Assembly: GCA_049303835.1 (NCBI GenBank)
Contig: JBAQNN010000002.1
Span: 94,492 to 158,491 of the forward strand
Source of the DNA: Minisyncoccia bacterium
Lineage (GTDB): Bacteria > Patescibacteriota > Minisyncoccia > Phycocordibacterales > UBA9973
Direction: 5' to 3'
Length of the DNA stretch: 64,000 nucleotides
The first letter of the stretch is position 1, and each line of letters opens with the position of its first letter. The position numbers were made by a program, and so were the translations under genes. Below are positions 27,165 through 50,968 of this stretch, piece after piece. The notes under the pieces are model-generated. The model had not been told where the DNA came from. It did no database searches and saw nothing but the letters and a program-made list of their open reading frames with translations.

Positions 27165-27650
27165 ATGGATAAAAACGAGATACAAAAATTAATAACAGAA
27201 TTGATTGAAAAAACTACAGTGAAATTAAATGATGTTTCTGTGGTAGAAGACGGGCCCAAAAACATCTGGGTTGCAGTAGAGGTGAGTGAACCACACTTCT
27301 TTATTTCACACGACGGTGAAGGTTTGCAAGCCCTAAACCATATTGTTCATAGAATTATTGAAGCTAAAAACCCTTCCCCCGCACCTGGTTTAGGAGAAAA
27401 AGCAGGGCTGGGAATCCTGGTGGATGTAAATGGTTTTCAAAAAAAGCACGTGGAGAATGTCCGAGCCATAGCTCATATGATGTCTGAGAGAGCGAGATAT
27501 TTTAAATCAAACATAGAAGTTGATCCGATGTCAGCCTTTGAGCGTAGAATTGTACACGAATTTTTATCCGATGCGCCTGATCTCAAAACCGAATCCATGG
27601 GTATGGGGCGTGATCGCCGAGTAGTTATCAAATATATCGGCTCTATTTAA
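27165..27650 (+). CDS. jag: Jag/SpoIIIJ-associated RNA-binding protein (KH + R3H)
   Basis: 161 aa, C-terminal R3H (ERRIVHEFL), position after yidC. Confidence 0.75.
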   Translation: MDKNEIQKLITELIEKTTVKLNDVSVVEDGPKNIWVAVEVSEPHFFISHDGEGLQALNHIVHRIIEAKNPSPAPGLGEKAGLGILVDVNGFQKKHVENVRAIAHMMSERARYFKSNIEVDPMSAFERRIVHEFLSDAPDLKTESMGMGRDRRVVIKYIGSI

Positions 27651-29007
27651 GTTCCAATTCCCAAAGGAAAGAGTCTTTTTTGTTTACAAAAAATAGATAA
27701 TTTTCCTCTGTATCAAGCGCGAGTTTTATGCTATCTGTCTCCTCTCCTCCTTCCACAGTGGTTGGGTCTAAAAGAAGAGTCGCATTTCCGGTAGTTAAAT
27801 CTATTTTCCAGAATTGATCTCCGAAAGATACTTCTCCACGATACCAAATATCCGGATATCCCGCTCCGGTAATTACTTTAGGAACTCCACAGTAGATGAC
27901 ATCGCTCACACTTCCCCAGACACATTTTTCCGGTAAAGTCCTTACCCCAAGAACTTCTGATGTCTTTGTGTCTGTATGGTAGATACCGAGAGCTAGGTTG
28001 TTGTTTCCATAAAGAATAGATTTTCCATCTGGACTAGTGAGGGTGGTCAATCCATTTATATTGCCGAAAATTTGGTGCAAGTTTTTATTATTTATTGGGT
28101 CCACGCCATATACAAATCCGGGGACAGAAGCGGCAGGTTTTGTGGTTAAAGTCATGAGTTTGTTGTTTGGCCACTCGGGCAACCACTCGGTGAATGGTGA
28201 ATCAAAGATTTGAGATTTTTTGTTGGTGGTCAGGTTTAAAGTTGTACCCACAATATTTTCTCCGACCTCAAACAGATAAAGAATACTTCCTTTGTCTCCC
28301 GACAGGCTCACATCCCTTATGTCTTCTGGCAAGAATGTTCCAGTTATTTCATTTTCTCCTGTAGTGTCTCCCCCCAAGACTTCTTTTGGCAAATTACCGA
28401 CAAAAGTAATGATGATGTTTCCATCTTCTTTTAAATATCTCATTATCACAGACTCTCCTTTGTTGCCAAAGAATGCTTCATATACTTTAGGAATCATTGT
28501 TCCGGAAAACTTCCTTTCTTCTATTTTATCCGCGAAAGTCTGATAGATGTTTCCTGTAGCTCTATCCACATACCTTAGAGCCGACACGAATTCTGTCGCC
28601 GGTGGGGTTGGTTTTGTGGTGGTCGTTGTTTTTGGAGTTGTTTCTTCCGGGGTGGTGGTATTTTCAGCAGGAGGAGTTGTCGGCGCTACCACAGGAGGAA
28701 TTTCTACTAGTCTTTCTTTAGTATAAACAGTAAAACCAGCCACGGGCATACTGGAGACCTTTTTAAGTTTTACTTCTTCCTGCTCGGGTCCTGGCTCGTA
28801 ACCGGAGACATCAGTAGGAGTGTCTCCTTTGGGCGTCGTCGGTGATTTGCCTCCCGTTCCAAATGGATTGAATTGTGAGATAAAGTTTGTCCCCTCTCCT
28901 TCTTCTCCTAGTGTCCCCGTGCCTTGTTGTAAATATAAAAATCCAAACACTACCAGGATAGTGATGATCAGAATTATTATTAAAAGTATAAAATTTCTTT
29001 TTGACAT
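27643..29007 (-). CDS. membrane-anchored protein with Thr/Pro linker and PD40/TolB-like beta-propeller repeats (last gene of T4SS-like operon)
   Basis: 454 aa, N-terminal TM helix, TTPPAENTTTPEETTPKTTTTTKPTPP linker, SPDGKSILY-type repeat. Confidence 0.5.
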   Translation of the reverse strand: MSKRNFILLIIILIITILVVFGFLYLQQGTGTLGEEGEGTNFISQFNPFGTGGKSPTTPKGDTPTDVSGYEPGPEQEEVKLKKVSSMPVAGFTVYTKERLVEIPPVVAPTTPPAENTTTPEETTPKTTTTTKPTPPATEFVSALRYVDRATGNIYQTFADKIEERKFSGTMIPKVYEAFFGNKGESVIMRYLKEDGNIIITFVGNLPKEVLGGDTTGENEITGTFLPEDIRDVSLSGDKGSILYLFEVGENIVGTTLNLTTNKKSQIFDSPFTEWLPEWPNNKLMTLTTKPAASVPGFVYGVDPINNKNLHQIFGNINGLTTLTSPDGKSILYGNNNLALGIYHTDTKTSEVLGVRTLPEKCVWGSVSDVIYCGVPKVITGAGYPDIWYRGEVSFGDQFWKIDLTTGNATLLLDPTTVEGGEETDSIKLALDTEENYLFFVNKKDSFLWELELK

Positions 29008-29016
29008 ATGTTTTTA

Positions 29017-29994
29017 TTATCTGCCATCCACTGACCAATGCCAAGGTTCGGATGGTAAGTTAGAAAGACCGTATTTACCGGCATTTGCTTGTAGCCACAC
29101 AAAGCACTTATTATCGCGGGTTTGAATAAATTTTCCATCACACTGTAGATCAAATGCCTTGCCATGGTTGTGATTTGATTGACCTGGAAGAGCTGTGGGT
29201 GGATTACATTTTGCACTTGCGTTTTCGTAGTCTCCATTACAATATTTTATTCTTAATTGTTTCTGTTGTTCTGTAGATCTATATCCCCCACCTGTTATGT
29301 TTAATCCGGCACTTTTTGATGCAACTAGCATGGCGTTAATGTTTGAAACAATATCTTTACATGCAAACATGCTAATTTGGGTTTTTACCACTCCGGCGCT
29401 ACATCCAGATGTAACTCCTGGGGGGTTCCCAGAATCGCTTGCTATTGCGTCTGCTAGTGTTACCTCTACTGTTATTTTTTCTAAACTACTCAGATCAGTC
29501 TTTAGAATATCTGGATTTATTTGGTTTAAGATTGTCCAAGCGCCCAAAGCGAGCACAAGTCCAAAAATAGCGCCAGTGATTCTATGTTTACCGTTTTCTT
29601 TATTAGATATCAGTTCACTAGTCATATACTCCAAACCACCCACCACTATCATTATCACAGCCAACACAGCGCATATACCGATGAAAATACGTATCATTAT
29701 GTTCAAATACTCACCTATTTTGGAATTTTCTCCCTCTGCGCTTGTCGGGTCAAAGGTTTTTAGTTGTCCATCTTCACACCCAGGAGTACCTTTTTCACAA
29801 GGCAGAGGGGCTAAAAAATTATATTTCAAATCATTTTCTTGTGTAGCATTTACGCAGGACACCCCATCAGGAGCAAGTATTTTATCTCCTGTGCATTCAA
29901 CTGCCAAAACAGAGTTGGTGGAGACAAAAAAACTAAAGATTAAAAAAACCAATTGTAATGAGACTATTATCTTTTTAAGCATATCTTTTTTCAT
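29017..29994 (-). CDS. fusion protein: VirB2/TrbC-like T4SS pilin domain + C-terminal M15 (VanY-like) peptidoglycan peptidase
   Basis: 325 aa: signal peptide, YNFLAPLPC motif, two hydrophobic helices (IRIFIGICAVLAVIMIVVGG, ITGAIFGLVLALGAWTILNQI), then GYRSTEQQ...SNHNHGKAFDL...EPWHWS. Confidence 0.6.
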   Translation of the reverse strand: MKKDMLKKIIVSLQLVFLIFSFFVSTNSVLAVECTGDKILAPDGVSCVNATQENDLKYNFLAPLPCEKGTPGCEDGQLKTFDPTSAEGENSKIGEYLNIMIRIFIGICAVLAVIMIVVGGLEYMTSELISNKENGKHRITGAIFGLVLALGAWTILNQINPDILKTDLSSLEKITVEVTLADAIASDSGNPPGVTSGCSAGVVKTQISMFACKDIVSNINAMLVASKSAGLNITGGGYRSTEQQKQLRIKYCNGDYENASAKCNPPTALPGQSNHNHGKAFDLQCDGKFIQTRDNKCFVWLQANAGKYGLSNLPSEPWHWSVDGR

Positions 29995-30980
29995 TAAAAT
30001 TCTACTCTTATTTCTTTACTTGTACCACCGAAAATTTTAAAGGTATCCTCAATCTCCAATTTTATTATAGATGTTCCCGACTGGCCCGACTGGACTGCGA
30101 GGGGCATAATATTCTTTTTATAAGCTGGCACAGCGACTTGATAATCGTTGATAAACCAATTAAATACGAGAGTCGGTATTCGTATTTCTTTAGGTGAGAT
30201 AAAATAAGGTACAGCCTCTATAATTTCATTTCCTTGTATCTTGTGTCCATCAGACAGAATCGTCTCCCAGACAGTTCCCGTAGTCGGGTTCTTTCTGTAA
30301 AATAGAATTTTTGGTTCTACTGTCCCCACAGTAATATTTGCAGCAGAAGAATATTTTTGATCTGTGGTGGAGGCCGTCACTCCTATAGTGCTAGTATCTT
30401 CCAGGTAATCATCTACATAGCTAAAAGAGTTTTTGCCATAACCGGAGGCATCTTGTTTGTTTGTATAGTCTCTCTTCCAAGCATAAACGAGGTTTTTAGA
30501 ATTTACTGTTTGGGTTCCATTTCTAATTTCTGGCATGGCCACTATTTTTATCTCGCTTCCGGTCGTCGGCATAGCCTTGCCACGATAAAAAGGTGGCACA
30601 TGAGAATCGTTTGCTTGCCAAAGGAGAGTCATAATGGATGGGCGGATCGTTATTCTCTTGTCTATAGTTCCGTCCGGTAGAGAGATAGAAGCTACGATGC
30701 TGGTCTCTTTTCCTGCCTCCGGAGCTGTAAGAGAAAAAGACTTTTTACCGATTCCAGACAAAACATTTTTCCCGTCCACAGACCATACGATGAGGACACT
30801 ATCCAGATTGCTGACATAGCTATTCAAGTTGATATTTACATTTTCATTTGGGCCAGGATTTTCCGGAGAGATGTCCACCAAGATACTACTTGAAGAAACA
30901 GCGGTTACTTCGGAAGGGAGAAAAATCCCTGTCAATAAAAGTGTTACTATTAAATATGAAAGTAAAAATCTTAATTGCAT
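29994..30980 (-). CDS. secreted protein of unknown function (T4SS-like operon)
   Basis: 328 aa, N-terminal signal/anchor. Its stop overlaps the start of the next gene by 1 nt. No motif recognised. Confidence 0.6.
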   Translation of the reverse strand: MQLRFLLSYLIVTLLLTGIFLPSEVTAVSSSSILVDISPENPGPNENVNINLNSYVSNLDSVLIVWSVDGKNVLSGIGKKSFSLTAPEAGKETSIVASISLPDGTIDKRITIRPSIMTLLWQANDSHVPPFYRGKAMPTTGSEIKIVAMPEIRNGTQTVNSKNLVYAWKRDYTNKQDASGYGKNSFSYVDDYLEDTSTIGVTASTTDQKYSSAANITVGTVEPKILFYRKNPTTGTVWETILSDGHKIQGNEIIEAVPYFISPKEIRIPTLVFNWFINDYQVAVPAYKKNIMPLAVQSGQSGTSIIKLEIEDTFKIFGGTSKEIRVEF

Positions 30981-31012
30981 AACTCAGCCTAATTATATCA
31001 TATCTGCTTTAC

Positions 31013-31047
31013 AACTTTATAACTTTCAACTTTTGAACTTTATAACT
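31013..31047. repeat. five degenerate 7-8-nt direct repeats AACTTTNN (AAAGTT in mRNA sense)
   Basis: acAACTTTatAACTTTcAACTTTtgAACTTTatAACTa directly after the virB4 stop. Followed in mRNA sense by TGATATAAT. Confidence 0.6.
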
Positions 31048-32893
31048 ATTGTTTACCCTCAGTTTCCGCTCTCTCCTGCTCCTCCTTGGCTTTTCTGTTT
31101 GAAAGTATTTGGGAAGGGTCGGAAGTGATTATCTGGTCTTCAGTATAAGAAGAAATGACTTTTATGGCTACATGCTTTAGGCCGGCAAAGAATATTCCCT
31201 CCCCGAGGCCTGACTCCAAAAGCAGATATTTTTCTTCATCCGTCAGGTTGAAGGTTTTTTGTAAAATATCTATAGTGGTCGGTGATTGTTTAAGGAGAAG
31301 TTGAATAGAAGAGTTTGTAATGATGGGGACACCATAAGGAGATTTCATAAAGTCGGCGGCGTCTTGGGTGATGGTGGAAAGACCGAGATAATATTTTCTA
31401 CCTCTTTTGGCGATAGAGTATAAGAATGAAGCGGTGTCTTCAGATTTCATCATCCACCAAGCCTCATCTACTACCAAGAGGCGCTTTTTCAAATTTTTTC
31501 GTACGGTATTCCAGATATAATGCATGATGATATACATGGCGACGGGTTTTAACTCGTCTTCCATGTCGCGGACGGAAAATACTACGAATTTTTTATTGAT
31601 ATCCACATTGGACGGTCTGTTTAAGAATGTCGCCCAAGAACCCCTCGTATATTTGGCTAGTCTGGTGACGATTGAATCACTTCCATCCATCCCTCCGAGC
31701 ACCATTTCAAAATCTGACAGAAGAGGAGGTTCAATGTTTGAGAAATCAGATTCAGGAGTGATATCTTTCATCGCATAAGTTTCGGAAATAGCTCGGTCTA
31801 CCATTGAATCTTCTTCAGGGGTGAGTCCGCCTAGCATCAATCTGAAAAGCCCTACCAAGTTTATGATATTTGAACGGAGGACATCTTCGGCTGTTTCGCC
31901 TTCGTGAGGAATAGGTAAATCAAAAGGATTGATGTGGTGATCGGAAGAAAGAGAAATATTGAAATATCTTCCACCGACCGCCTCTGACAAGAACTCGTAT
32001 TCCCTTTCCGGATCTATCACTATGACATCAACATCAAACATTAAAGATCTCAAAATTTCTAGCTTAGTGGCATACGATTTTCCGGAGCCGGACTTGGCAA
32101 AGGTCACGGAGTTGTAATTCTCTAGTGAAAATCTATCAAAGATGACTAGGCTGGAATTGTGCCTGTTGATGCCGTAAAGTATTCCTTTGTTGGAAGTCAG
32201 GTCAAAAGAAATAAATGGGAATACACTACTAAGTGGTTCAGAATTCAACTTCTGATGAATACCAAGTATGTCTGTATTTATGGGTATGACGCTCTTAAAA
32301 CCGTCTTCTTGTTGGAAGAGAGCCGGTTTGATATAGATGAGTTTTGATTCAAGGATTGATTTTATCTCATTTTCTATTTTGAAAAGTTCCAACTCGTTGT
32401 CGGCATAAATGGTGATGTAAATACCCACATCAAACATTTTTTCTTGCGCTTGGATCAGATTATTGCGCAGGCCCTCTAGGTCTTGGTAGGCAGTATCAAG
32501 CATAGGGTCGCGCACCATACCCTTACTCTCTCGTACACTTATCTGACTCTGCACCTCGGCGACTTTTTTCTGAAATTGTCTCAAGACCAGAGAAGTGTCT
32601 ATCGGATGAATAAAAATTGAAATATCAAAAACTTTATCCAGATTGATTATAGGAGAGAACCAATTGTCTGTCAGAAATCTAGGATAGGAAATGATGAAAA
32701 AAGTACGAGCGATTTTATCTCCCAAGCTTATGGATTTAGACGATATTTTCAGAGCTGAAGGAGCGATGACATCTTGGAGCTCCAGGGTGGCGGATTGGTA
32801 GATTTCTTCCGGCATCACTGCCAAGACGGAAGCTCTCACTTCCTTTTCCTCCCCTCCTTTTTGTCCACCTAATAATTTTTTTAAAAAGTCCAT
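31046..32893 (-). CDS. virB4: VirB4/TraE-type T4SS ATPase, C-terminal 3/4 (split gene, part 2)
   Basis: 615 aa, Walker A AKSGSGKSY, Walker B LLVVDEAWWMM, ITQDAADF. The N-terminus matches the DxIAPS...yP region that sits at about aa 215 of single-chain Gram-positive VirB4 homologues. Confidence 0.85.
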   Translation of the reverse strand: MDFLKKLLGGQKGGEEKEVRASVLAVMPEEIYQSATLELQDVIAPSALKISSKSISLGDKIARTFFIISYPRFLTDNWFSPIINLDKVFDISIFIHPIDTSLVLRQFQKKVAEVQSQISVRESKGMVRDPMLDTAYQDLEGLRNNLIQAQEKMFDVGIYITIYADNELELFKIENEIKSILESKLIYIKPALFQQEDGFKSVIPINTDILGIHQKLNSEPLSSVFPFISFDLTSNKGILYGINRHNSSLVIFDRFSLENYNSVTFAKSGSGKSYATKLEILRSLMFDVDVIVIDPEREYEFLSEAVGGRYFNISLSSDHHINPFDLPIPHEGETAEDVLRSNIINLVGLFRLMLGGLTPEEDSMVDRAISETYAMKDITPESDFSNIEPPLLSDFEMVLGGMDGSDSIVTRLAKYTRGSWATFLNRPSNVDINKKFVVFSVRDMEDELKPVAMYIIMHYIWNTVRKNLKKRLLVVDEAWWMMKSEDTASFLYSIAKRGRKYYLGLSTITQDAADFMKSPYGVPIITNSSIQLLLKQSPTTIDILQKTFNLTDEEKYLLLESGLGEGIFFAGLKHVAIKVISSYTEDQIITSDPSQILSNRKAKEEQERAETEGKQ

Positions 32894-32900
32894 AATTGTA

Positions 32901-32975
32901 TTTAGGCTTTAGCTTTTAGGCTCTAGGCTCTAGCTTTTGAGTTTGCTAATGCCTAAGGCCTAGTTGCCTAGCGCC
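32901..32975. repeat. heptad hairpin element copy A, (NNTAGGC)n - loop - (GCCTANN)n
   Basis: TTTAGGC TTTAGC TTTTAGGC TCTAGGC TCTAGC / ttttgagttt / GCTAAT GCCTAAG GCCTAGT TGCCTAGC GCC. It fills the gap between the two virB4 parts. Confidence 0.8.
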
Positions 32976-33614
32976 CTACTCTATTTTAATCTTACCCTCC
33001 AATTCTCCGGGGTTGAAAACTTTATAAAATACTTCCACTACTTCTTCGGTATTCAGCTGGGCCGAATTTATTCCACAACGAGACAATCCTTGCTGGATGA
33101 CAGCTACCCTCTCTTCTAGTTGAGATCTCTTCTCTTCAAAATCTATCTGTTTTGCGGCTCGCACTTCTTCTGAATTCTTTTTGGAAAATAGCTTTCCCAA
33201 TATCCCGGAATCTGATTTTAAAGTTGTACGTGAATATGGTATTACAATAAAGAAGTTTTTTGTCATGATACTGACAGATTCAGTAAAGCTTCTTATAAAC
33301 TCTATATATTCCCTAGTTTGCAACTTGATCAACGGCTCATTTTGCACTTTTACTCTGTTTTCTAAAAGGAGTAAATAAGGTCTGATGTCCAGCCTTCTGG
33401 ATTGGACTGATATCTGTACCGGAAAATCCAAGGTGTTTAAAAAATTTTGAAATTGAAGAATGGTCGCATGTTGTTCATCGGAAGATTTCAAGGATAGGTT
33501 GACCGAGTTTGCGAGTACGATGGCTCGGAGCTCACCTTCTTTTAGCACGATGATGCCATCGCGTATCTCTTTGATTGGTATAAATTCTTGTGTTGCTTTT
33601 GCTTTTAATGCCAT
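32976..33614 (-). CDS. virB4: VirB4 N-terminal domain (split gene, part 1)
   Basis: 212 aa, ATQEFIPIKEIRDGIIVL...NLSLKSSDEQHATILQFQNFLNTLDFPVQI resembles the N-terminus of Tn916 Orf16/PrgJ-type VirB4 (recalled from memory). Confidence 0.65.
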   Translation of the reverse strand: MALKAKATQEFIPIKEIRDGIIVLKEGELRAIVLANSVNLSLKSSDEQHATILQFQNFLNTLDFPVQISVQSRRLDIRPYLLLLENRVKVQNEPLIKLQTREYIEFIRSFTESVSIMTKNFFIVIPYSRTTLKSDSGILGKLFSKKNSEEVRAAKQIDFEEKRSQLEERVAVIQQGLSRCGINSAQLNTEEVVEVFYKVFNPGELEGKIKIE

Positions 33615-33623
33615 AAATTTTTT

Positions 33624-33700
33624 CTAGGGCTTTAGGCTCTAGGCGTTAGGCTTTAGCTTTTGTTTCGCTAGAGCCTAGTGCCTAAGGCCTAGCTGCCTGC
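33624..33700. repeat. heptad hairpin element copy B
   Basis: CTAGGGC TTTAGGC TCTAGGC GTTAGGC TTTAGC / ttttgtttc / GCTAGA GCCTAGT GCCTAAG GCCTAGC TGCCTGC. The last 12 nt supply the end of the prgI-like ORF. Confidence 0.8.
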
Positions 33701-34129
33701 ATTTTTCTTTTTACTCAAATCAAGCACGTCCAAGCTCCAGGCCAAATCTCGCAACCTACTTCCATCCAATTTTGAACTGACATTTGGCAGTACTTCATTT
33801 TTATTTTCATCCATGTTTGTAGTTTGCGATTTATTATTTGCTACCCTACCGGTCTTCTTCTTCCAAATATAAAGTTTGTTTTGAGAAAAATATTTAAACC
33901 CTGCTTCAATCATGTTTATAAAAGGCTTATTGTTTGGTTTATAGAAAGTAAGAGCTAAAGAAAACCCGGCGATAATCAAAATAGGGATGGCGCTAAAGAC
34001 GAGCCCTAATAATTTATAAAGCACAAAACACAAACCTGCTCCGCCGGCCAAATAAGCAAACTCCCTAAAAGTAAAAGGGCCGAATATTTTATCTTCTATT
34101 TCTAAAAATTGTGGAACCTTGAATTGCAT
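33689..34129 (-). CDS. PrgI-family (VirB3-like) two-TM T4SS protein
   Basis: MQFKVPQFLEIEDKIFGPFTFREFAYL then two TM helices. I prefer the ATG at 34129 over the track GTG at 34141. Confidence 0.65.
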   Translation of the reverse strand: MQFKVPQFLEIEDKIFGPFTFREFAYLAGGAGLCFVLYKLLGLVFSAIPILIIAGFSLALTFYKPNNKPFINMIEAGFKYFSQNKLYIWKKKTGRVANNKSQTTNMDENKNEVLPNVSSKLDGSRLRDLAWSLDVLDLSKKKNAGS

Positions 34130-34140
34130 AAATACAGGCA

Positions 34141-34542
34141 CTAGGCTTTAGGCGCTAGGCTCTAGCTGAGAAATTAGTTTATTCAACATTTTCATAATTT
34201 CTTCTAATAAAGAACCCACTTTATTATAATCTAATTTTGCAGTTTTGGGTAATTTTTTAGATATTATTAGCTGAGTTTCTAGCTCCGCACCAGAAGCAAA
34301 GGCAATAAGTAAGAATCTTTTGAATTCTGGAATTCCTCCTCGCATTTTCCCTTCTGCAATATTAGAAGGTATGGATACTGCCGCCCTACGAATTTGTGAG
34401 GTTAAACCATAAATTTCTTCCTTCGAAAATTTGTCTGTGAGTTCATAAACTGCTATTACAAGCTCTATCGATTTTTGCCACACGACTAAATCTCTATATG
34501 TTTTCATGTGTTTTTTACTAGCGCCTAATGCCTAGAGCCTAG
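34141..34542 (-). mobile_element. heptad hairpin element copy C carrying a four-helix-bundle (IVS-type) gene in place of the loop
   Basis: Left arm 34141-34166: CTAGGC TTTAGGC GCTAGGC TCTAGC. Right arm 34518-34542: CTAGC GCCTAAT GCCTAGA GCCTAG. By hand pairing the arms form a ~26-bp helix around the ORF. Confidence 0.55.
34148..34507 (-). CDS. four-helix-bundle protein (23S rRNA intervening-sequence protein family)
   Basis: 119 aa, MKTYRDLVVWQKSIELVIAVYELT...SIPSNIAEG...AELETQLIIS, the signature pattern of this family. The last codons (LEPSA) are encoded by the repeat arm. Confidence 0.85.
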   Translation of the reverse strand: MKTYRDLVVWQKSIELVIAVYELTDKFSKEEIYGLTSQIRRAAVSIPSNIAEGKMRGGIPEFKRFLLIAFASGAELETQLIISKKLPKTAKLDYNKVGSLLEEIMKMLNKLISQLEPSA

Positions 34543-34548
34543 AAAATA

Positions 34549-35100
34549 TTACTCCGGTATCTCCCTATACGGATCAATTTTAGGAACATCTGCTCTATTT
34601 CCACTGGTCTTTTCTTCTTTAGTAATATTTTCTATTGAGTGGTCCGTCTCTACAACAGGATTTTTTACAAGGCCGGATAGTTTTTGGGCCAAAATGGGAT
34701 GTGGAGAATCTATCTCCAGTTTTTCCGGCACAATCTCAATCCCAGCGGATTTTAGTATCTCTGTGTCGTTCTCCTCTTCTTTTATCTTTGATGAATCTAT
34801 TAATTTTTCTCGGATTTCCTTCAATATTTTTTCATTAACGTCATTTACTATGGTGTGGATTTTTTCCTCCGGCAGTTTTAGACTGTTTCTGACCGACTCT
34901 TCAAATTTATCCGGATGAGTAAACCCAAACATCACCATGTGTGTCTCAAGTGACAATTGACCCATCTGTTCTACGTTTAGATTTTCTTTTTGACCTATTT
35001 CTATAATGTTATCGTCCACATTGGCCGCCATGATTGACCATTTTAGGTCTTCCGGCAAGCTCTCAAATTTTTTTTGTATTTCTTCTAATGATATTTCCAT
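34549..35100 (-). CDS. acidic hypothetical protein (T4SS-like operon)
   Basis: 183 aa, no TM helix, no motif recognised. Confidence 0.55.
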   Translation of the reverse strand: MEISLEEIQKKFESLPEDLKWSIMAANVDDNIIEIGQKENLNVEQMGQLSLETHMVMFGFTHPDKFEESVRNSLKLPEEKIHTIVNDVNEKILKEIREKLIDSSKIKEEENDTEILKSAGIEIVPEKLEIDSPHPILAQKLSGLVKNPVVETDHSIENITKEEKTSGNRADVPKIDPYREIPE

Positions 35101-35127
35101 AATATTTTTTATTAGAGCTGATAATTA

Positions 35128-38127
35128 CTAGTGTCCTCCGTGTCCCGCATCGTGTCCAGCATCATGTCCCCCACCAGAAGGCGCTTCCGGAGGATGTTCG
35201 TGTTTTGGTTCGGCAGATGCCTTTGGTGTGGCGTGTCCTCCGCCTCCCTTTCCTTCTTTCTTGTGGCCACCTTCTTTGTCGTGCTCTTCCTTATGGAACA
35301 CATCTTTATCTTTTCCTAGATCATATTTTTCTTTTTCAAGTCTCCTCATTTGATCTGGTGCGGTTTTTAGCCTATTTAATTGACCCAGTTCTGTTGTGGC
35401 TTTAAACGCAGCATTCTTTATTGCAGTCATTCTAGGATCGTTATCAGGAACGTTCTGCTTGACAAGCTCTTGAAGTTTTAAATCTTCCCTCTTCATAGTA
35501 AACGTGAGTTGGGCTATTCTCTTTTCTACCCCTTTCAGATTGACTTCATCTTTACCGTTTTTATTTTTTTCAACCAGTTTAGTGATTTCTCCCGAAATGT
35601 CGTCTTTTACCTCCATATTTTTTCCTTCTTCCATTATTGTAGTTAAATTTTCTAACGCCACAGTATTCTCTGTCAACCTGTCTTCTATCTTTTGTAGTTT
35701 TTTATGCCCTTTTTCAATATCAGTGGCGAATGATCCCTGGGCCGCTTCTCCCGTGCCTTTTACTCCCGTAGCTTCCTTGAATTTTCTGGTCACTCCAAAC
35801 GCTGCTGCTCCGGCTGTTGTGACCTTTGCCGCCGTAGCTATACCCGCTATACCCGCGATACCACCGATTCCAGCAAGTGCTGCTGCCACCCCAGCTTTCA
35901 TTACAACCTTCTGGGTTCTTCCTTTGTTTATATCGTCTATTGTGGGTTCTTTGTGTGCTTCTTTAAACATTCTCTCAAATCTTTCTTTGTCGAATCCACT
36001 TCCTTCTCTTGTTTGTGCTTCTTTTTCTGCATCCTTTTTTTCTTCAGCCCAGTTCTTATATTCTTTTGAATCTTTGTAATTGTTTTGGTCAACCATTCCA
36101 CCACTTGCTTTCAACAAAGAACGCGCGAGAGAAGCCGTTAATCCATTTTGTCCGAAGTTATTTATAAATTCTTTCATTCTGTCGTGATTGAGTTCATCCG
36201 CCGATTTGTATCCCTTTGGTCGCTCACCGTTTTTCTTCTTAAATTCTTCCTCACTAATTCCATTCTTCTTTGCTATCGCAAGATTACTGTCGTATTCATC
36301 TTGTTTTTTCTTTGACCATGCTTTTACTTCGTCACCACTCATACTTGTTTTATAGAGCTTTGATTCTTCTTCTAATTTCTTCTTTTGCTTTTCTTTTCGT
36401 CCTTGGTATCCTCCCTCATTTGCAGAACCCAAATTTATGCCGGTTCCGCTTACAAATTTCTTTCCAAGACCAGTGGCCCGAATATCGAAGGATGCCTTTG
36501 ATCCATAATCTGCTGTTTTTAGCATCTTTCTTGCTGCCCAACCAGTGAACCCCCTTTCTTTATTGTTTGCGGCGGTTTTTAGACCCTCACTGCTTGCAAC
36601 TTTACTCGATATCGCGCCTATTGCTTGTGTTGCCATAAGCGATGTACCTCCTGTAGCAGCACCCAAGGCGAGTCCCCCAATTAGTTTTGCACCAGTCATC
36701 AATTTTTCTCCCAAGGCGCCGGAACCCTTTTTGGCATATTCTGTAGCTTTGAGTAAGAGAATTAGAATTACTAAGGCAGGAATTATGATGAGCAAGATAG
36801 TTTCTATGAAGCTCGCGTTTGATTTAGAAATAATTTGGTCAAATATCTTTGCTTGAATCAGCATAAATATAAAATACATAAAGAACATGAAAATCGGCGC
36901 CATAAAAGCGGTTTTAAGCAAACGTTTGAACCAAGCATCCCAACCCAAATATTCAACACTACTTAAAATTGGAATGGTTGAAGACATAAAAGCAAAAGGA
37001 GAGAATATAATTAGAACAAAAAGTTCAATCATACGGCCCACAAAGCTGATGCCGGCAACAAAAAAACAATATGCGGCAAAAAACATGAGCACTCCAGCGA
37101 TGATTGTGATTCCAATCAACATACCCCCAGAAACTTCAGTTGAAGCTTTAACTCCTCCTATTTCTTGGGTTTTAAGTTTTGCAAAAAAATCTGGGGTTAA
37201 TAAACTAGTTGGATTGAATGCGTTTACCATACCACCAGCGACATCCTTTTCTCCATTTGCCGTGTTTTGATATTCCCGTACTTTACCATCTGCGTTTACT
37301 GTGTTGACTTCCATTTTATTGTAAAAAACCAAAGCCAAAACATTAGAAGTATCAATAATTACTTGAGTAAAGAACATAGAAAAGTTTATCAAGAGAGCAA
37401 TAACGATGACTTTCACTATCATTTTTTTTGCATCGTGTCCCGCTAAATCTAAAATTATTTTTATAGCGATAAAAAGGAGAATGAGTATAAAGAAAATATT
37501 TGAAAGATCTCGAACTACACCCCAAGCAGTAGGGATGAATGTAGAATTAGCAAACAATTTGCCACTAAGTGTGATGAATATTAAAACATTAAAAAAATAA
37601 GCTGATAACCACAACAAGAAAGAAGGAATAACATAAAAAAGACCATAAGATGCCTGCACAAAACATCCGGGATAAAAGGAAGAGTCACTTCCTCCTAGCC
37701 CGGTTACTCCAAATCCGCAAATATTTTTTCCAATTTCATTCTCAAATGCAGTTTTTGGGCTATTTGTATTTTGTACATCTGTTCCATCTGCCGCTGCATC
37801 AGATGCTTTTGGTCTCCACTGCCCCCCTCCAGCTTCACAAACACTTTTTGTCTTTTCAGTTACTACACTATTTGTGGTACAAATTCCGGTTACTTCGTCT
37901 TTATTGTCTGGAACCCATCTTTTAGTAAAACCCTCAAGTAGTTCAAGATCCGTACATTTTTGTTGTGTTTCAAACTTTTCTCTTCGTATTATATCGCCAT
38001 TCCTATTTGAAACTTCACAGGTTCCTGTTCCTGTTTGTGCCTCTACTTTCTCAGCCATCCCAAATACCCCGCCCAGTACGATGAGTATCAATAAATATGG
38101 TATTATTTTTTTTACTCTATTTTTCAT
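35128..38127 (-). CDS. polytopic membrane protein, VirB6/TrbL-like, with Cys-containing N-terminal ectodomain, long coiled-coil tail and His/Gly-rich C-terminus
   Basis: 999 aa: signal peptide, about 8 TM helices between aa ~150 and 480, charged coiled-coil region. Ends with GGGGHATPKASAEPKHEHPPEAPSGGGHDAGHDAGHGGH. Confidence 0.5.
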   Translation of the reverse strand: MKNRVKKIIPYLLILIVLGGVFGMAEKVEAQTGTGTCEVSNRNGDIIRREKFETQQKCTDLELLEGFTKRWVPDNKDEVTGICTTNSVVTEKTKSVCEAGGGQWRPKASDAAADGTDVQNTNSPKTAFENEIGKNICGFGVTGLGGSDSSFYPGCFVQASYGLFYVIPSFLLWLSAYFFNVLIFITLSGKLFANSTFIPTAWGVVRDLSNIFFILILLFIAIKIILDLAGHDAKKMIVKVIVIALLINFSMFFTQVIIDTSNVLALVFYNKMEVNTVNADGKVREYQNTANGEKDVAGGMVNAFNPTSLLTPDFFAKLKTQEIGGVKASTEVSGGMLIGITIIAGVLMFFAAYCFFVAGISFVGRMIELFVLIIFSPFAFMSSTIPILSSVEYLGWDAWFKRLLKTAFMAPIFMFFMYFIFMLIQAKIFDQIISKSNASFIETILLIIIPALVILILLLKATEYAKKGSGALGEKLMTGAKLIGGLALGAATGGTSLMATQAIGAISSKVASSEGLKTAANNKERGFTGWAARKMLKTADYGSKASFDIRATGLGKKFVSGTGINLGSANEGGYQGRKEKQKKKLEEESKLYKTSMSGDEVKAWSKKKQDEYDSNLAIAKKNGISEEEFKKKNGERPKGYKSADELNHDRMKEFINNFGQNGLTASLARSLLKASGGMVDQNNYKDSKEYKNWAEEKKDAEKEAQTREGSGFDKERFERMFKEAHKEPTIDDINKGRTQKVVMKAGVAAALAGIGGIAGIAGIATAAKVTTAGAAAFGVTRKFKEATGVKGTGEAAQGSFATDIEKGHKKLQKIEDRLTENTVALENLTTIMEEGKNMEVKDDISGEITKLVEKNKNGKDEVNLKGVEKRIAQLTFTMKREDLKLQELVKQNVPDNDPRMTAIKNAAFKATTELGQLNRLKTAPDQMRRLEKEKYDLGKDKDVFHKEEHDKEGGHKKEGKGGGGHATPKASAEPKHEHPPEAPSGGGHDAGHDAGHGGH

Positions 38128-38176
38128 CTCTTTTACTATTCCAGCAACCTCTTAACTTAAAAAACCTTAAACATAT

Positions 38177-40564
38177 TTAAAACGTATCCTCTCCCGCATG
38201 TGTATAGTCCGTCTTATTAGATCTAAAGACAGAGTTGCAATCTATGTCTGCACTGATTCTTTTATCTGTTTCACCTCCACCCAACCAGCTACAAATTCCA
38301 GTACAGGTAATATCTCCGTAAATATTTTTTGCATTGACTATAGGAAGATCTTTGTAGCCTTCTTCTCCCTCGTCATTGTTTTCGTTTCTGAAGGTGAAAG
38401 ATTGCCCTTGGTTAGAGGAATCTGATCTTATTATCTCTCCATGGCTATATCCAGAAACTATCGGAATGCTACAGAACTTTGCAAGTTCCGTCATTTGTCC
38501 ATGTTGTTTGCTTTCTCTTCCTCCAATTTTGTCCCAGTCAGCATTTTCTCTCTGTCCTTCACATTCTGTAGCCATATTCTTTATACTATTCCTTTTGTCG
38601 TTTAGTGAGTCCACATCTGATCTAGCGTTTTCTATTGTTATAGAAGATGAAACTGAAGATTTTATTGAATTATATTGTTTCTTTAACAGAACCATAGTTT
38701 TTTCCTGGGCAGAACCAGCTTCTGGTTGTGTCGCTATCGCCGCTAAGCCTGTTTTTTGTGCCGCTTTTTCGTTTCCTGCTATCGCCTTTAACCTTGCAAG
38801 CGCCTGAGCTTTTTCTCTTTTTATTCTTATAGCTTCGTCCATTTTTTCTGGAAAACCATCCATATTACTTATCTCCTCTAAATACAATATTGAGTTAGGA
38901 AGTTCATTTATCATTCTCATTATCACCCAATCCTTAAAGGAATCTACTGCAAACTTTAATTCTCTAACAGCATCAGTCGCTGCTTTTATTTTTAGATCAT
39001 CATCCCCAGCCTGATCTTTTTGTAGTTTATTTACAATTCTTCCCTGTTCTTCTTTTAATCTTTTTTCCCAGTTTTTGTCTGGTCCAGGAATACACTGGTC
39101 TAGTTTTTCAGCAAGTTGAGAGATCCCAAGACTTTCTGGATTAATATTATTTATTAGTTTCGGTATTATTTCTAGAAGAATTATTTCAGTTTCTGTGTTT
39201 GCTATGTCCCCAGGTATATAGGTACCATTACCAGTATTTCCTATTTCCTCGATCGTTTCTTCAGCACCTGTTTCTGGATTGATTTTTGTAACAATAGTTT
39301 TTCCATGCAATTGTTTTTTAAATTTATCTAATATGATTTCTTCGTCAGGCCCGGAGTCCCAGGACGAGTTAGCTCCTCCCTCATCAGGGCTTCCAAGAGT
39401 TAGCCCATTATAGCTCCAATCGTCCACTACAGGCTCAGGGTTTTTCTTGCTTGCTAGGCTATTTAGCCCGTCTCCTATGAATTTATTTAATAAAGCATCA
39501 AAAATGGTTGAAAGACTATTCCCCATAGCTGCTCCGAGTTCACTTTGGCGAAAGTTTGATCCTAGGGCATTTGTTATCTGGCTTGATACGACAGCGCCAG
39601 GAGTTGTACTTACTAATCCTCCTGGACAAGTATTTTCTTCTTGCCAATCTTGTTTTTCAGTTGCAACCCCATTTTGATAATCCATGTTGTAATTATCACA
39701 CCGCGTCTTTTCTTCTGGTGTTGGTTGTCCGTCGATGTTAAACTGACAAAAACTCTCATCATATTTTTGTGATGGCTTGAAGCTCGGTCTCTGAAATTCG
39801 TTCACTCCATTATTGTAGGATGGATTTGATGGACAAGTTTGTGGAGACAAGAACCCCATTCCCTGTTGTAGGGTTGTTTGTACCTTCTGTGCAGCTGTTT
39901 GAGTGGTTCCTTGTACTCGTCTAGCGAGTTCTTCTGTAGCGAGCATTTGGAAGCCTAGATAATTGTTTTGTGGATATTGAGTGTTTATGAGGAAAGCATC
40001 CCAGCCCCCTACATTGAAATTATTTTGATAGTTGCGAAGTTGTACTGGGTCAGTCATGACCTTACTCAAAGAATATGCTGCGTTATCACTGAGTTGTCTT
40101 TTATATGCGTTTATTGTGTTTAAAGCAAAATCTTTACCAAAAGGATATTTTAGATTGTCATAACCGAATGTGTCTACTAAATTTTTTACTTCTGATTTAG
40201 CGATGTCTTCAAAAAATGATTGTGGGTTTTCTAAAAAGAGAGGGCTTCCATGAAAACCCGAATTTATCCAGTTTACAGTACTTTTTGTTATCTCTTGTAG
40301 GGCTTTTCGGGCTACGGCTTGCAAAACTTGCTTCAAGATTTCTTGATACCATGTTTGTACAGCCTTTGAGGCAGTTATAGCGTTGGAGGCATTTCCTTGT
40401 ATTCCCAACGCAACCTTTATTCCACTCCATATCCCCCCCAAGATATCCATTACAGTAACTGCCTCAGCCTTCCTTGGTTCAATAAATAAAAAAGAGGGGA
40501 CAAGAATCATAATTAGCAGGAAAAGAGAGATTAACTTTTGAATTTTTGGGTTCTTAAAAATCAT
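38177..40564 (-). CDS. large secreted/anchored protein of unknown function (T4SS-like operon)
   Basis: 795 aa, N-terminal hydrophobic anchor ending ...PRKAEA, several Cys pairs, no motif recognised. Confidence 0.55.
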   Translation of the reverse strand: MIFKNPKIQKLISLFLLIMILVPSFLFIEPRKAEAVTVMDILGGIWSGIKVALGIQGNASNAITASKAVQTWYQEILKQVLQAVARKALQEITKSTVNWINSGFHGSPLFLENPQSFFEDIAKSEVKNLVDTFGYDNLKYPFGKDFALNTINAYKRQLSDNAAYSLSKVMTDPVQLRNYQNNFNVGGWDAFLINTQYPQNNYLGFQMLATEELARRVQGTTQTAAQKVQTTLQQGMGFLSPQTCPSNPSYNNGVNEFQRPSFKPSQKYDESFCQFNIDGQPTPEEKTRCDNYNMDYQNGVATEKQDWQEENTCPGGLVSTTPGAVVSSQITNALGSNFRQSELGAAMGNSLSTIFDALLNKFIGDGLNSLASKKNPEPVVDDWSYNGLTLGSPDEGGANSSWDSGPDEEIILDKFKKQLHGKTIVTKINPETGAEETIEEIGNTGNGTYIPGDIANTETEIILLEIIPKLINNINPESLGISQLAEKLDQCIPGPDKNWEKRLKEEQGRIVNKLQKDQAGDDDLKIKAATDAVRELKFAVDSFKDWVIMRMINELPNSILYLEEISNMDGFPEKMDEAIRIKREKAQALARLKAIAGNEKAAQKTGLAAIATQPEAGSAQEKTMVLLKKQYNSIKSSVSSSITIENARSDVDSLNDKRNSIKNMATECEGQRENADWDKIGGRESKQHGQMTELAKFCSIPIVSGYSHGEIIRSDSSNQGQSFTFRNENNDEGEEGYKDLPIVNAKNIYGDITCTGICSWLGGGETDKRISADIDCNSVFRSNKTDYTHAGEDTF

Positions 40565-40594
40565 TTGAAGTATTTTAATTATATAATTTTTTAC

Positions 40595-41476
40595 TTAATC
40601 ATTCAATTTATTATACACTTCCTCACTCAGATTCTTGATTGTTTCCTCTAAAGAAACGCTATTTTTTTCGTACTGACTTATTCCTATAAGCGAAACGATT
40701 GCATCCGTGTCATACATCTTGATGTCTTCTATGTTTTCTGCAATTCTTTCCATCCCGTTTATAAAACTCAAATGAAGTGGAACCAAAGATTTTGGTACTC
40801 CTATTTTTAATATTTCGTCTATCAAACTTCTCGTTTGTTTTATTATTGGGTCTAAGTCTTTTAAAACACTTGTGTCCACATTATTTTCATCTATTACAAA
40901 TTTACCCAGCACCTCGATAACGCTTCCCTTTATGGGGTTTTTGGCATAAGCACTGTTTAGCTCATCGTTGTATGTCCTTATTGTTGCGTATTGATTTTCG
41001 TCCAGGATTTTTATATCCGCTTGGGTAAACACCTTTCTAGGTAAGATATTTTGCATTTTTTCGGAAAGAGAGGTAGTTATGCTGTCCACTGTCTTTTCAT
41101 CTACATTTCCTTGCTGATTAAGAGTTGCTACTGTTGAGAACAGTTCCCTTGAAAATTTCTCTGTCTCTGTGAGATTTTCAGTGTAATCTGGGCTGTCTTC
41201 AGTTGTAATGTTTGTGTCAAAACCTTGTTCAGCTTTCAATTTTTTTATTACCGAACTATCTGGGGCTCCGGGAGTAGTTTCTTTTGTTGTCGGGTCTAGA
41301 CCCCACAATGGCTCCTCCCAATCCAAAATTCCATCCCCATCTGTATCTTTATTTACTAGGTCTCCTATCGCCACAGTGTCATAAGTCAGTCCATCTTGTC
41401 CGCCCTTAACAAAATCTACAGTATTTTGAAACACAGAAGTGTTTTTCGCCAAAAAAAGGATGACGAGAAAAACCAC
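40595..41476 (-). CDS. membrane-anchored protein with one thrombospondin-type-3-like Ca-binding motif; first gene of T4SS-like operon (true start probably upstream, see findings)
   Basis: 293 aa from GTG. Contains DTDGDGILDWEE. The reading frame stays open 5' to 41562. Confidence 0.55.
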   Translation of the reverse strand: MVFLVILFLAKNTSVFQNTVDFVKGGQDGLTYDTVAIGDLVNKDTDGDGILDWEEPLWGLDPTTKETTPGAPDSSVIKKLKAEQGFDTNITTEDSPDYTENLTETEKFSRELFSTVATLNQQGNVDEKTVDSITTSLSEKMQNILPRKVFTQADIKILDENQYATIRTYNDELNSAYAKNPIKGSVIEVLGKFVIDENNVDTSVLKDLDPIIKQTRSLIDEILKIGVPKSLVPLHLSFINGMERIAENIEDIKMYDTDAIVSLIGISQYEKNSVSLEETIKNLSEEVYNKLND

Positions 41477-41562
41477 TGCCGAGCAGATTAAAATTACTCT
41501 TTTGTGTTTTGACCAAAATTCTTTAATTATGCTTTTATTGTACCACTTCTTTTGGAAGTAAA

Positions 41563-48669: not shown

Positions 48670-48779
48670 ATGTCTTCATATTATATGACTTTTAATTTTT
48701 TTAGACCAATTTTTACTCAAAAAGCTACCAAAATTATTCAGTTTAGTAGCTTTTTTGTCAAATTTTAACCCCCAAATAG

Positions 48780-48788
48780 TTATCCACA
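48780..48788 (+). promoter_or_regulatory. perfect DnaA box (extended TAGTTATCCACA)
   Basis: Read directly. Intergenic. Confidence 0.5.
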
Positions 48789-49043
48789 GACCCCCCTTGT
48801 CGGATTGACTTTTGACCCTTTTTGAGCTATTCTATATCTCGTAGTCCTGGAGAGAAGTTGGGCGCGAACTGGCTGTAAGACAGAAGAGATTGTAACCATC
48901 GTGAGAACCTTTGTTTACAGAACCTATTGGTCGTCCTGTAATTCTACCCTTATTCTAAAAGGCTAGAAAAGGAAATCTCGCGAAATTTAGTTTGTTTTAT
49001 AAAACCTACAAAAAAAACAGTTAGTAAAATATTAAGGTCTATC

Positions 49044-50159: not shown

Positions 50160-50166
50160 AAGATTT

Positions 50167-50919: not shown

Positions 50920-50968
50920 CGTATATTAAATAAAAATAGTTTGCAAAAAAATTAAGAGAAATTAGAAA

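Follow-up and report, generated by a model that had tools for sequence, protein, structure and literature searches.

According to a 2025 review, the type IV secretion systems (T4SSs) of Patescibacteria form a new, by now recognised branch of the T4SS superfamily (PMC12857230). Southlakia epibionticum depends on its T4SS cluster, which lies near the origin, for epibiotic growth in co-culture with a host (Wang et al. 2023; PMC10633639); this system is Gram-positive-like, contains pilins and has no recognisable coupling or relaxase proteins. A survey of 3,035 Patescibacteria genomes (Quinonero-Coronel et al. 2025; PMC12102498) placed VirB4, present in 2,417 of them, in a clade nested in MPF-FATA and located TrsD, PrgI/VirB3, VirB6 and VirB2-like pilins near the virB4 gene. 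VirD4-like genes occurred in 2,918 of the genomes, mostly far from virB4, and relaxases in only 103. In Paceibacteria, the cluster adjoins dnaA, dnaN, ksgA, rnpA and rpmH (PMC12102498), and in Paceibacterales enrichments proteins with a T4SS-pilin domain were among the most highly expressed unknown (extracellular) proteins (PMC10936435). A 2026 preprint on a cultivated Microgenomatia strain reports uptake of host RNA along with tubular structures "that may be T4SS pili", and also that VirB4 is monophyletic across the phylum (10.64898/2026.06.21.733656). Here, we analyse a putative member of this group, a minus-strand operon at positions 27643–41530 (counted from the probable start of its first gene) in a 64,000-nt stretch of contig JBAQNN010000002.1 from a Minisyncoccia bacterium (assembly GCA_049303835.1). 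This whole stretch is called the window, and all coordinates refer to it.

We interpret the operon as a chromosomally fixed, monoderm-type (MPF-FATA-derived) T4SS of Patescibacteria in its Nomurabacteria/Paceibacteria form, working as a non-conjugative machine at the interface with a host, and put the probability of this reading at roughly 0.8. A preliminary description of the window, made from the letters alone, had favoured host interaction or DNA uptake over conjugation, and all of its elements that could be tested held up; host interaction in place of conjugation is also the published view of the system (PMC10633639, PMC12102498). Relaxase-less clusters next to dnaA were already described between 2023 and 2025, and the locus is a good example of a known system, not a discovery; what is added here, the dissection of unannotated partners and the modularity of a pilin–enzyme fusion, is modestly novel. 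The function of patescibacterial T4SSs is an acknowledged open problem: they are essential in the one species tested and occur almost throughout a lineage to which a quarter of bacterial diversity has been ascribed. The locus leaves this general picture unchanged and offers a compact, very well conserved ten-gene version with clear boundaries. Its conserved components, in the order of transcription, are:

40595–41530, minus strand: first gene, bitopic membrane protein, 293 aa from GTG at 41476 or about 311 aa from ATA at 41530 (conserved upstream peptide and transmembrane (TM) helix)
38177–40564, minus strand: exported or membrane-anchored protein, 795 aa (N-terminal TM segment, structure model)
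35128–38127, minus strand: "extended VirB6-like" polytopic membrane protein, 999 aa (hydropathy, distant family matches of orthologs)
34549–35100, minus strand: acidic, predicted cytoplasmic protein, 183 aa (alignment of 49 orthologs)
33689–34141, minus strand: PrgI/VirB3-like small membrane protein with a two-helix hairpin, 150 aa (Pfam PrgI)
32976–33614, minus strand: TrsD-like protein, detached VirB4 N-terminal domain, 212 aa (NCBIfam TrsD, collinearity)
31046–32893, minus strand: VirB4-type ATPase, C-terminal motor part, 615 aa (Walker A and Walker B motifs, profiles)
29994–30980, minus strand: secreted protein with three tandem related repeats of about 100 aa each, 328 aa (hhalign, signal-like helix)
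29017–29994, minus strand: VirB2-like pilin module joined to a VanY/LdcB-type zinc carboxypeptidase, 325 aa (T4SS_pilin and VanY profiles)
27643–29007, minus strand: N-terminal TM anchor, disordered Pro/Thr-rich linker and seven-bladed beta-propeller, 454 aa (AlphaFold2 (AF2) model, Foldseek)

The minus-strand run from 27643 to 41476 is unbroken and, in the list of open reading frames (ORFs), comprises 11 ORFs of 454, 325, 328, 615, 212, 150, 119, 183, 999, 795 and 293 aa. The public annotation of the same metagenome-assembled genome (MAG) also has 11 genes (WA060_01165 to WA060_01215; proteins 100% identical), and the twelve genes counted in the preliminary description have to be reduced accordingly. 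The junctions quoted there are correct (29994/29994, a 1-nt overlap; 29007/29017, a 9-nt gap), and those of the whole operon range from a 1-nt overlap up to 82 nt. All ten conserved genes are intact and free of internal stops; with ten conserved components, the earlier label "minimal" undersells the apparatus. In the deposited MAG, the VirB4 protein is named "DUF87 domain-containing protein" and the pilin–VanY fusion "D-alanyl-D-alanine carboxypeptidase family protein" (MFZ3011594–MFZ3011601), and the TrsD-like, 328-, 183-, 999-, 795- and 454-aa proteins are "hypothetical". The T4SS is thus essentially invisible in public annotation.

With the Patescibacteria-clade systems of the 2025 survey (PMC12102498), the locus has in common an MPF-FATA VirB4, an adjacent TrsD, PrgI/VirB3, a candidate VirB6-like protein and a pilin near virB4, as well as the lack of a relaxase in the cluster and the chromosomal site by dnaA, dnaN and ksgA. 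The main text of that survey mentions neither pilins fused to interchangeable wall-enzyme domains nor the five Pfam-less partners described here. By description, the T4SS of S. epibionticum ML1 (SEML1_0006–0019) resembles the locus in being origin-proximal and Gram-positive-like, in having pilins within the cluster and no recognisable relaxase or coupling protein, and in carrying peptidase/lysozyme genes downstream of virB4. The two differ in their pilins, six divergent stand-alone ones in ML1 and one enzyme-fused module here. Essentiality has been demonstrated for the ML1 system.

To place the operon among its relatives, we used VirB4 as query against species-representative genomes, which returned 592 relatives, and took the best 80 as comparison loci. 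All 80 come from MAGs of Ca. Nomurabacteria/Paceibacteria/Minisyncoccia and share 75–92% identity with the window's VirB4, which identifies the organism as a candidate phyla radiation (CPR) bacterium, as suspected earlier. The closest VirB4 proteins of monoderm plasmids (CD1110 family, in Bacillota and Actinomycetota; Streptomyces, Pontibacillus, Clostridium, Bacillus) are 28–35% identical. Because the best 80 relatives are patescibacterial at 75–92% and plasmid VirB4 reaches at most 35%, the protein very likely belongs within a monophyletic Patescibacteria clade.

When the window proteins were compared with the 80 loci by tblastn, the gene order was pcrA–ksgA–293–795–999–183–PrgI–TrsD–VirB4–328–pilin/enzyme–454, followed by the convergent jag and yidC and by dnaA and dnaN. 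The same ten genes occur in the same order in dozens of species-level genomes of Paceibacteria, which puts the cluster far beyond chance and marks it as a fixed chromosomal machine and not an integrative and conjugative element (ICE). Median identities to the window proteins were 85% for VirB4, 72% for TrsD (found in 80 of 80 loci) and 58% for PrgI (75 loci), then 47% for the 454-aa protein, 43% for the pilin protein, 36% for the 328-aa protein (74 loci), 33% for the 999-aa, 32% for the 183-aa and 30% for the 795-aa protein, and likewise 30% for the 293-aa protein (35 loci). In the same loci, DnaA reached 81%, DnaN 70%, YidC 66% and KsgA 57%. VirB4 is therefore at least as conserved as DnaA and more so than DnaN, YidC and KsgA in the same genomes, in a sample that was picked by VirB4 similarity and so somewhat inflates its conservation. 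The cytoplasmic parts are conserved at 72–85% and the exported parts have diverged to 30–47%: judged by these alignments, the motor is as constrained as the replication initiator and the exported parts are fast-evolving.

The flanks are those of an ordinary chromosome. On the same strand, ksgA (41563–42417) abuts the 5' end of the operon, followed by a fused MFS/spermidine-synthase gene, by pcrA/uvrD further upstream and by a 775-aa ORF, up to 48669. The 3' end converges on jag (R3H) and yidC, and dnaA (24213–25556) and dnaN lie 2 kb and 3.7 kb past it. The other genes of the window are housekeeping genes, namely ruvA, fpg, uvrABC, polA, tsaE, a PilB-type ATPase gene, ruvB and an aminoacyl-tRNA synthetase gene. 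Further genes encode a class A penicillin-binding protein (PBP), an M23/LysM peptidase, transporters, five tRNAs, the CCA enzyme, a racemase, Xth, an XerC/D-type recombinase and PNPase. The GC content of the locus (0.37–0.41) is similar to that of its surroundings. Taken together, the conservation pattern and the housekeeping flanks exclude an ICE or a decaying remnant.

The assignment of the 615-aa protein as a VirB4-type ATPase, made earlier from its Walker motifs (AKSGSGKSY and LLVVDEAWWMM), is borne out by curated profiles. It scores 364.5 bits against NCBIfam conju_CD1110 (cut-off 325), covering model positions 182–733 of 752, and exceeds the Pfam cut-offs of P-loop_TraG (7.5e-25), AAA_10 and DUF87. 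The N-terminal part that is missing from this match is encoded next door. The 212-aa protein, which the preliminary description did not mention, matches NF041427 TrsD (2.8e-6) and also the N-terminal positions of three VirB4 models. In the unsplit 783-aa VirB4 of a Clostridium perfringens plasmid, residues 21–200 align to the 212-aa protein (E = 3e-6) and residues 205–754 to the 615-aa protein (E = 4e-85). As the two proteins are collinear with an unsplit VirB4, we conclude that VirB4 is split over two genes here, and the 212-aa protein is, on this alignment, the detached VirB4 N-domain. The same split is present in all 80 related loci. The PrgI/VirB3 assignment likewise holds, with 35.8 bits against Pfam PrgI (cut-off 27; 1.2e-8); its true start is probably the ATG at 34129, because orthologs begin with MQFKVPQ.

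The plasmid used for this alignment, C. perfringens pSXP-169_2 (NZ_CP143494.1), represents the MPF-FATA systems of Bacillota (CD1110/CD1115 family; pCF10 prgH–prgL), with which the locus shares the order polytopic membrane protein–PrgI–VirB4–cell-wall hydrolase. The plasmid VirB4 is about 30% identical to the window's over 550 residues. Its gene order reads MobC–relaxase–DUF3801–VirD4–two small proteins–PrgI–VirB4–SLT hydrolase–...–topoisomerase III–sortase; MobC, relaxase, DUF3801, VirD4 (CD1115), topoisomerase III and sortase all have no counterpart in the window, so that the core order is shared but whatever DNA processing requires is lacking here. Further differences are the single 783-aa VirB4, the lack of a pilin and a separate 850-aa SLT hydrolase in the plasmid.

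The pilin of the locus sits two genes downstream of virB4 and is joined to a cell-wall enzyme. Both domains had been recognised in the preliminary description, and both pass their profile cut-offs within the same 325-aa protein: T4SS_pilin (PF18895) at residues 100–157 (7.9e-8, 32.7 bits, cut-off 26.6) and VanY at residues 213–321 (9.5e-13, 48.5 bits, cut-off 25). A TrbC match of the pilin module (1.7e-4) stays under its cut-off. The protein has a signal peptide, a YxLLAPLP motif and two TM helices (hydrophobic segments 6–24, 103–121 and 139–157), and the zinc motifs of the VanY domain are intact (SNHNHGKAFD, fitting SxHxxGxAxD, and EPWH, fitting ExxH). The pilin module is thus not a small stand-alone subunit but lies inside a 325-aa protein with a 170-aa enzyme domain. 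A profile hidden Markov model of the module detected a single ORF with a pilin domain in the window, and likewise a single one in 67 of 72 related loci.

Among 49 orthologs, 43 keep the T4SS_pilin module, and their C-terminal domains vary: VanY (8), NlpC/P60 (8), YkuD (4), Amidase_5 (4), Peptidase_M15_4 (2), SLT_2 (2) and also TIG/Ig-type domains. An extension of at least 150 aa follows the module in 65 of 69 orthologs. By sequence, the extensions group into at least 11 clusters that are unrelated to one another, besides some singletons, and the clusters interleave with respect to VirB4 similarity; genomes whose VirB4 is at least 89% identical to the window's already carry at least six extension types. 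Stand-alone pilins 55–72% identical to the module exist in other genomes. The homolog search that used the module alone returned only short stand-alone pilins (24 matches). That the sole pilin comes with exchangeable wall-enzyme domains offers a specific and testable starting point for asking how the machine encounters a cell wall.

The 999-aa protein has a signal peptide and a Cys-rich ectodomain, and about seven TM helices lie at residues 160–460. Its long hydrophilic tail is rich in Lys and Glu and closes with a stretch rich in His and Gly; hydropathy gives about eight hydrophobic helices overall. Invariant residues of the family are concentrated in the TM core. Its orthologs match membrane families of ICEs, namely MMCAP2_0566 (10 of 41, best 6e-9), Mbov_0396 (7 of 41, 7e-8) and CD3337/EF1877 (3 of 41), the weakest of these best E-values being 2e-4. 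These families comprise polytopic proteins at the VirB6 position of monoderm ICEs. No match to the 999-aa protein was found in the PDB, or in plasmids by tblastn. Together with PrgI/VirB3, VirB4 and TrsD, the VirB6-like protein is, as far as profiles and topology go, part of a cytoplasmic-membrane translocon.

The Mycoplasma ICEs (Mbov_0395/0396/0397; MMCAP2_0565/0566) offer counterparts to three of the parts found here: their pilin-like family matches at 3.3e-7, their membrane family at values down to 6e-9 among orthologs and their VirB4 family with 259 bits, in each case under the curated cut-off. Unlike the locus, these elements are mobile, carry a DDE transposase and a coupling protein (T4CP) and have no wall enzymes.

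Six further conserved proteins accompany the translocon: the bitopic protein with a TSP3 motif, the 795-aa stalk protein, the three-repeat secreted protein, the tethered propeller, the pilin–enzyme fusion and the acidic cytoplasmic protein. Eight of the ten conserved proteins are predicted to be membrane-bound or exported (seven by hydropathy, the 293-aa protein by its upstream TM helix), and the VirB4 ATPase and the 183-aa protein are predicted to be cytoplasmic. The preliminary description could name no family for the four exported proteins of 795, 454, 328 and 293 aa and for the 183-aa protein; our Pfam profile scan found none either, nor one for the 999-aa protein. PDB sequence and profile searches with the families of the 795-, 999-, 454-, 328-, 293- and 183-aa proteins gave nothing significant, and Pfam scans of individual orthologs yielded only weak hints (PD40 in 3 of 50, PKD_3 in 2 of 47, TSP3 in 6 of 31).

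The largest of these partners, the 795-aa protein, begins with a TM segment, continues with a conserved N-domain that no Pfam family covers (about residues 90–390) and ends in a helical stalk whose small head contains Cys. Its structure model is confident only at residues 410–790, where it shows the elongated stalk and the small beta/Cys-containing head; a Foldseek search of the model against the PDB returned nothing below E = 0.04. More than 505 relatives, all "hypothetical" and devoid of Pfam domains, make up its family. When 1.84 billion cluster representatives were searched with a profile, 4,155 members came up, 742 of them at E ≤ 1e-30, and distant members share only the N-terminal 400 or so positions. 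The 795-aa protein is the founder of a large family outside Pfam, with about 4,000 clusters at 50% identity.

For the 454-aa protein, the AF2 model (mean predicted local distance difference test score 81, above 90 in the propeller) hit WD40-type propellers in Foldseek at E = 2e-10 with probability 1.0. The earlier suggestion of a PD40 domain is hence right at the level of the fold, while at the level of profiles it remains the weak hint in three of 50 orthologs given above. The protein has more than 1,000 homologs, in some of which PG_binding_1 replaces the linker. In the 328-aa protein, which starts with a signal-like helix, hhalign comparisons between the three thirds gave probabilities of 95%, 85% and 43%; the repeats are probably Ig-like beta-sandwiches, and a few orthologs show weak PKD/Ig hints.

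The 183-aa protein has no TM segment and no family in our searches. Its helical domain of about 100 aa is present once, whereas many orthologs have it duplicated; a disordered linker of variable sequence connects it to a C-terminal tail that hardly varies, ...ILAQKLSG..TEHS..N..K-IDPYREIPE. We considered the DPYRE tail as a secretion signal common to neighbouring genes and found no support for this, the DPY[RH] tail being confined to the 183-aa gene (67 sources).

The 293-aa protein has a helix-rich ectodomain with a Ca-binding, TSP3-like DxDxDG motif, and the bacterial TSP3 repeat reaches 5e-9 among the six matching orthologs. Its gene most likely starts at ATA 41530 or ATT 41527 and not at GTG 41476, because an upstream peptide (IIKEFWSKHKR) and a TM helix are conserved in relatives that have no canonical start codon there. 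In front of this start lies a further element:

41537–41545, minus strand: extended -10-like promoter element TGGTACAAT (alignment of 14 close relatives)

In the nucleotide alignment of the 14 close relatives, G.TA.AAT is kept at 80% or more and is followed by ATA/ATT-AAA; the box reads TGnTAyAAT, with ATA, ATT or ATC about 7 nt after it. From this we infer that the box acts as a promoter, and its spacing points to an mRNA with no leader or a very short one, on which initiation would occur at an isoleucine codon. Scans with promoter and terminator consensus sequences across the operon showed no enrichment over shuffled sequences. A similar GnTATAATTA box precedes prgI in those relatives that do not carry the accessory cassette described below.

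Five "hypothetical" partners have thereby become concrete targets, namely a tethered propeller, a three-repeat protein, a bitopic protein with a Ca motif, a stalk protein and a cytoplasmic protein with an invariant tail.

By analogy with characterised systems, VirB4 with its TrsD-like N-domain would dock on PrgI/VirB3 and the VirB6-like channel protein and power assembly and transport. The bitopic and tethered proteins would span the wall, and the extracytoplasmic proteins could build a wall-spanning or pilus-like structure. The pilin module would insert into the membrane, where it may polymerise or anchor, with the enzyme domain presented outside; in this way a VirB2-like subunit may bring a peptidoglycan-modifying enzyme to the cell wall, the cell's own or that of the host. 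Following the literature, the machine would act at host-cell contact, exchanging macromolecules with the host cell on which the epibiont lives, and would be needed for the epibiotic lifestyle.

The preliminary description had found no relaxase, VirD4/TcpA-type coupling ATPase or VirB11 in the window. Our scan covered all window ORFs of at least 190 aa, within 64 kb of a 232-kb contig, and agrees that none of the three is present among them. The ORFs of at least 500 aa are either assigned elsewhere (UvrA, UvrB, PolA, PilB, PBP1, PcrA, CCA, PNPase etc.) or are T4SS proteins without a family. The relaxase, MobC and VirD4 (CD1115) of the C. perfringens MPF-FATA system had no tblastn match in the window or in the 80 related loci (1.5 Mb), with one relaxase query.

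Two genes in the window were considered as displaced conjugation parts. The only T2SSE-family ATPase (14538–16235) might have been the missing VirB11; it is PilB-type, with 466 bits against TIGR02538 compared to 49 bits for VirB11, and lies 11 kb away. On the plus strand, this ATPase gene has tsaE and ruvB as neighbours, and no gene for a pilin, PilC or PilM adjoins it in the window. The only tyrosine recombinase, at 57295–58212, was considered as an ICE integrase and rejected as XerC/D-type; it is located next to xth, 16 kb away. An ordinary ICE or integrated plasmid was likewise rejected on account of the housekeeping flanks, the conserved synteny, the typical composition and the absence of a border integrase or att sites. 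The preliminary description had named a relaxase, VirD4 and flanking integrase/att sites as the marks of an ordinary ICE; the first two are absent from the scanned ORFs of the window, and the last from the flanks of the operon.

Several points weigh against our interpretation. Only 64 kb of the 232-kb contig were inspected, and VirD4-like genes lie elsewhere in most Patescibacteria genomes (PMC12102498); "coupling-protein-less" therefore holds only locally. Essentiality of the T4SS is known from one Saccharibacterium only. Among the cluster proteins, no VirB8-like component was identified. The window's own 999-aa protein reaches only E = 0.019 (Mbov_0396), and Pfam TrbL/VirB6 matched none of 41 orthologs. 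The polytopic topology of the earlier VirB6/TrbL-like assignment is confirmed; on position, topology and distant family matches we call the protein VirB6-like, which falls short of proven homology to VirB6. Domains of the VanY/LdcB and YkuD types trim or cross-link peptidoglycan and are not hydrolases that make holes, so that they suit a role in remodelling the wall or in anchoring no less than one in breaching it. A hydrolase that opens the wall is thus only one possible reading, since the domains include trimming and cross-linking enzymes besides lytic ones. The choice of comparison loci by VirB4 similarity, mentioned above, belongs here as well.

The strongest competitor is a machine of the Ced type that works inward, pulling host RNA or DNA through a pilus-like tube and so feeding an organism that is unable to make nucleotides. 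We regard this as possible but doubtful. The local absence of a relaxase and T4CP is compatible with it, and the Microgenomatia preprint pairs host-RNA uptake with possible T4SS pili, although it itself calls the uptake mechanism unresolved (10.64898/2026.06.21.733656). The PNPase and DNA-repair genes nearby in the window would be weak support; profile scans, however, found no nucleic-acid-binding domain in any of the ten proteins. In S. epibionticum, T4SS essentiality is, as far as the summary in PMC12857230 goes, independent of ComEC-mediated DNA uptake, which does not exclude RNA (PMC10633639). Archaeal Ced (CedA/CedB) is the precedent for an inward-working T4SS-like machine and resembles the locus in combining a VirB4-family ATPase with a polytopic membrane protein and no relaxase (as cited in PMC12102498). 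However, it has no PrgI, TrsD, pilin or wall enzymes and is comparable to the locus through VirB4-family membership only; import driven by VirB4 is established for archaeal Ced alone, whose other parts are unrelated. Between outward assembly or secretion and import, we lean only slightly to the former.

A second alternative, which we consider improbable, is a machine for the cell's own envelope, such as an adhesive surface filament or a device for remodelling its own wall during division. The enzyme domains of the pilin proteins include LD/DD-carboxypeptidase and LD-transpeptidase types that normally act on the cell's own wall, PG_binding_1 occurs in some homologs of the propeller protein, and yidC, dnaA and the class A PBP gene share the window with the locus. 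Against this, fast-evolving exported parts and the swapping of enzymes between close relatives are more typical of an interface with a variable partner. To our knowledge, VirB4 motors occur only in transfer or pilus-biogenesis systems. Moreover, essentiality was measured in host co-culture, and current models place the system at the host interface (PMC10633639).

A bolder reading is a long shot. The T4SS of the Nomurabacteria clade may have no ordinary pilin at all: its VirB2-like module would carry interchangeable wall enzymes (VanY/LdcB, NlpC/P60, amidase, SLT, LD-transpeptidase) and the 795-aa protein would serve as a VirB5-like tip. The resulting enzyme-decorated filament or channel would be retargeted to different host walls by domain swapping and act as a feeding tube for host macromolecules, e.g. 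RNA.

A genuine conjugation system with relaxase, oriT and coupling protein encoded elsewhere in the genome is very unlikely. The search covered 64 kb of the genome, distant VirD4-like genes are the rule in Patescibacteria (see above; PMC12102498), and pcrA/uvrD lies directly upstream. However, the pcrA–ksgA adjacency is housekeeping synteny and relaxases are as rare in the phylum as stated at the outset (PMC12102498). In S. epibionticum, the distant T4CP is non-essential and the T4SS essential. A near-universal, syntenic and origin-proximal locus under very strong purifying selection is also unlike a mobile element. Finally, there is next to no chance that the locus is what is left of an integrated conjugative element, decaying after the loss of its genes for DNA processing and now without function: the affinity of VirB4 to monoderm plasmid and ICE systems, the split VirB4 and the cassette inserted into the operon (see below) could be read in this way, but synteny and conservation effectively refute it, with ten intact genes in the same order in dozens of species, VirB4 conserved like DnaA, a split that is universal in the clade and corresponds to the recognised family TrsD, and no flanking integrase or att sites.

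In addition to the ten conserved genes, the operon contains an insertion between the 183-aa gene and prgI:

34136–34540, minus strand: accessory cassette with a gene (34148–34507, 119 aa) for a four-helix-bundle "23S rRNA intervening sequence (IVS) protein" (Pfam, inverted repeats)

The 119-aa protein matches Pfam 23S_rRNA_IVP (6e-36) and TIGR02436. Inverted repeats of 23–25 nt flank the cassette (arms 34136–34158 and 34518–34540, 91% complementary, with CTAGG/CTAGC units). The IVS gene is present in 11 of the 80 related loci, each time with its own flanking inverted repeats of different sequence, and the cassette is missing in the other 69; on account of this distribution, we regard the gene as an insertion and not as a core component. 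A core role of the four-helix-bundle protein as a T4SS component or as the bAvd protein of a diversity-generating retroelement was rejected in view of its presence in 11 of 80 loci, a bAvd match of only E = 0.03 and the inverted-repeat cassette. The unit looks like an IVS-like hairpin cassette that has entered an mRNA and not an rRNA; it may be mobile or provide a site for RNase III.

Upstream of the operon, the fused gene for an MFS-like protein and spermidine synthase (42414–43955, minus strand; NF037959, 273 bits) lies between ksgA and pcrA and has no tblastn counterpart in the 80 related loci. Further along, at about 49 kb (region ~48700–53400), the sign of the GC skew changes and the genes turn from the minus to the plus strand. 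This switch is some 24 kb from dnaA; the T4SS operon is located in the interval and is transcribed away from the switch. A search for DnaA boxes gave 24 matches against 17 expected without a cluster, and single perfect boxes at 25625, 48780 and 53004.

The 775-aa protein (46342–48669, minus strand) is acidic and belongs to no family. A domain of about 100 aa within it (residues 395–494) is 34–45% identical to ORFs that stand between the homologs of the 795-aa and 999-aa genes in 10 related loci. In this genome, the 775-aa protein may be an accessory component of the T4SS whose gene lies 5 kb upstream of the operon.

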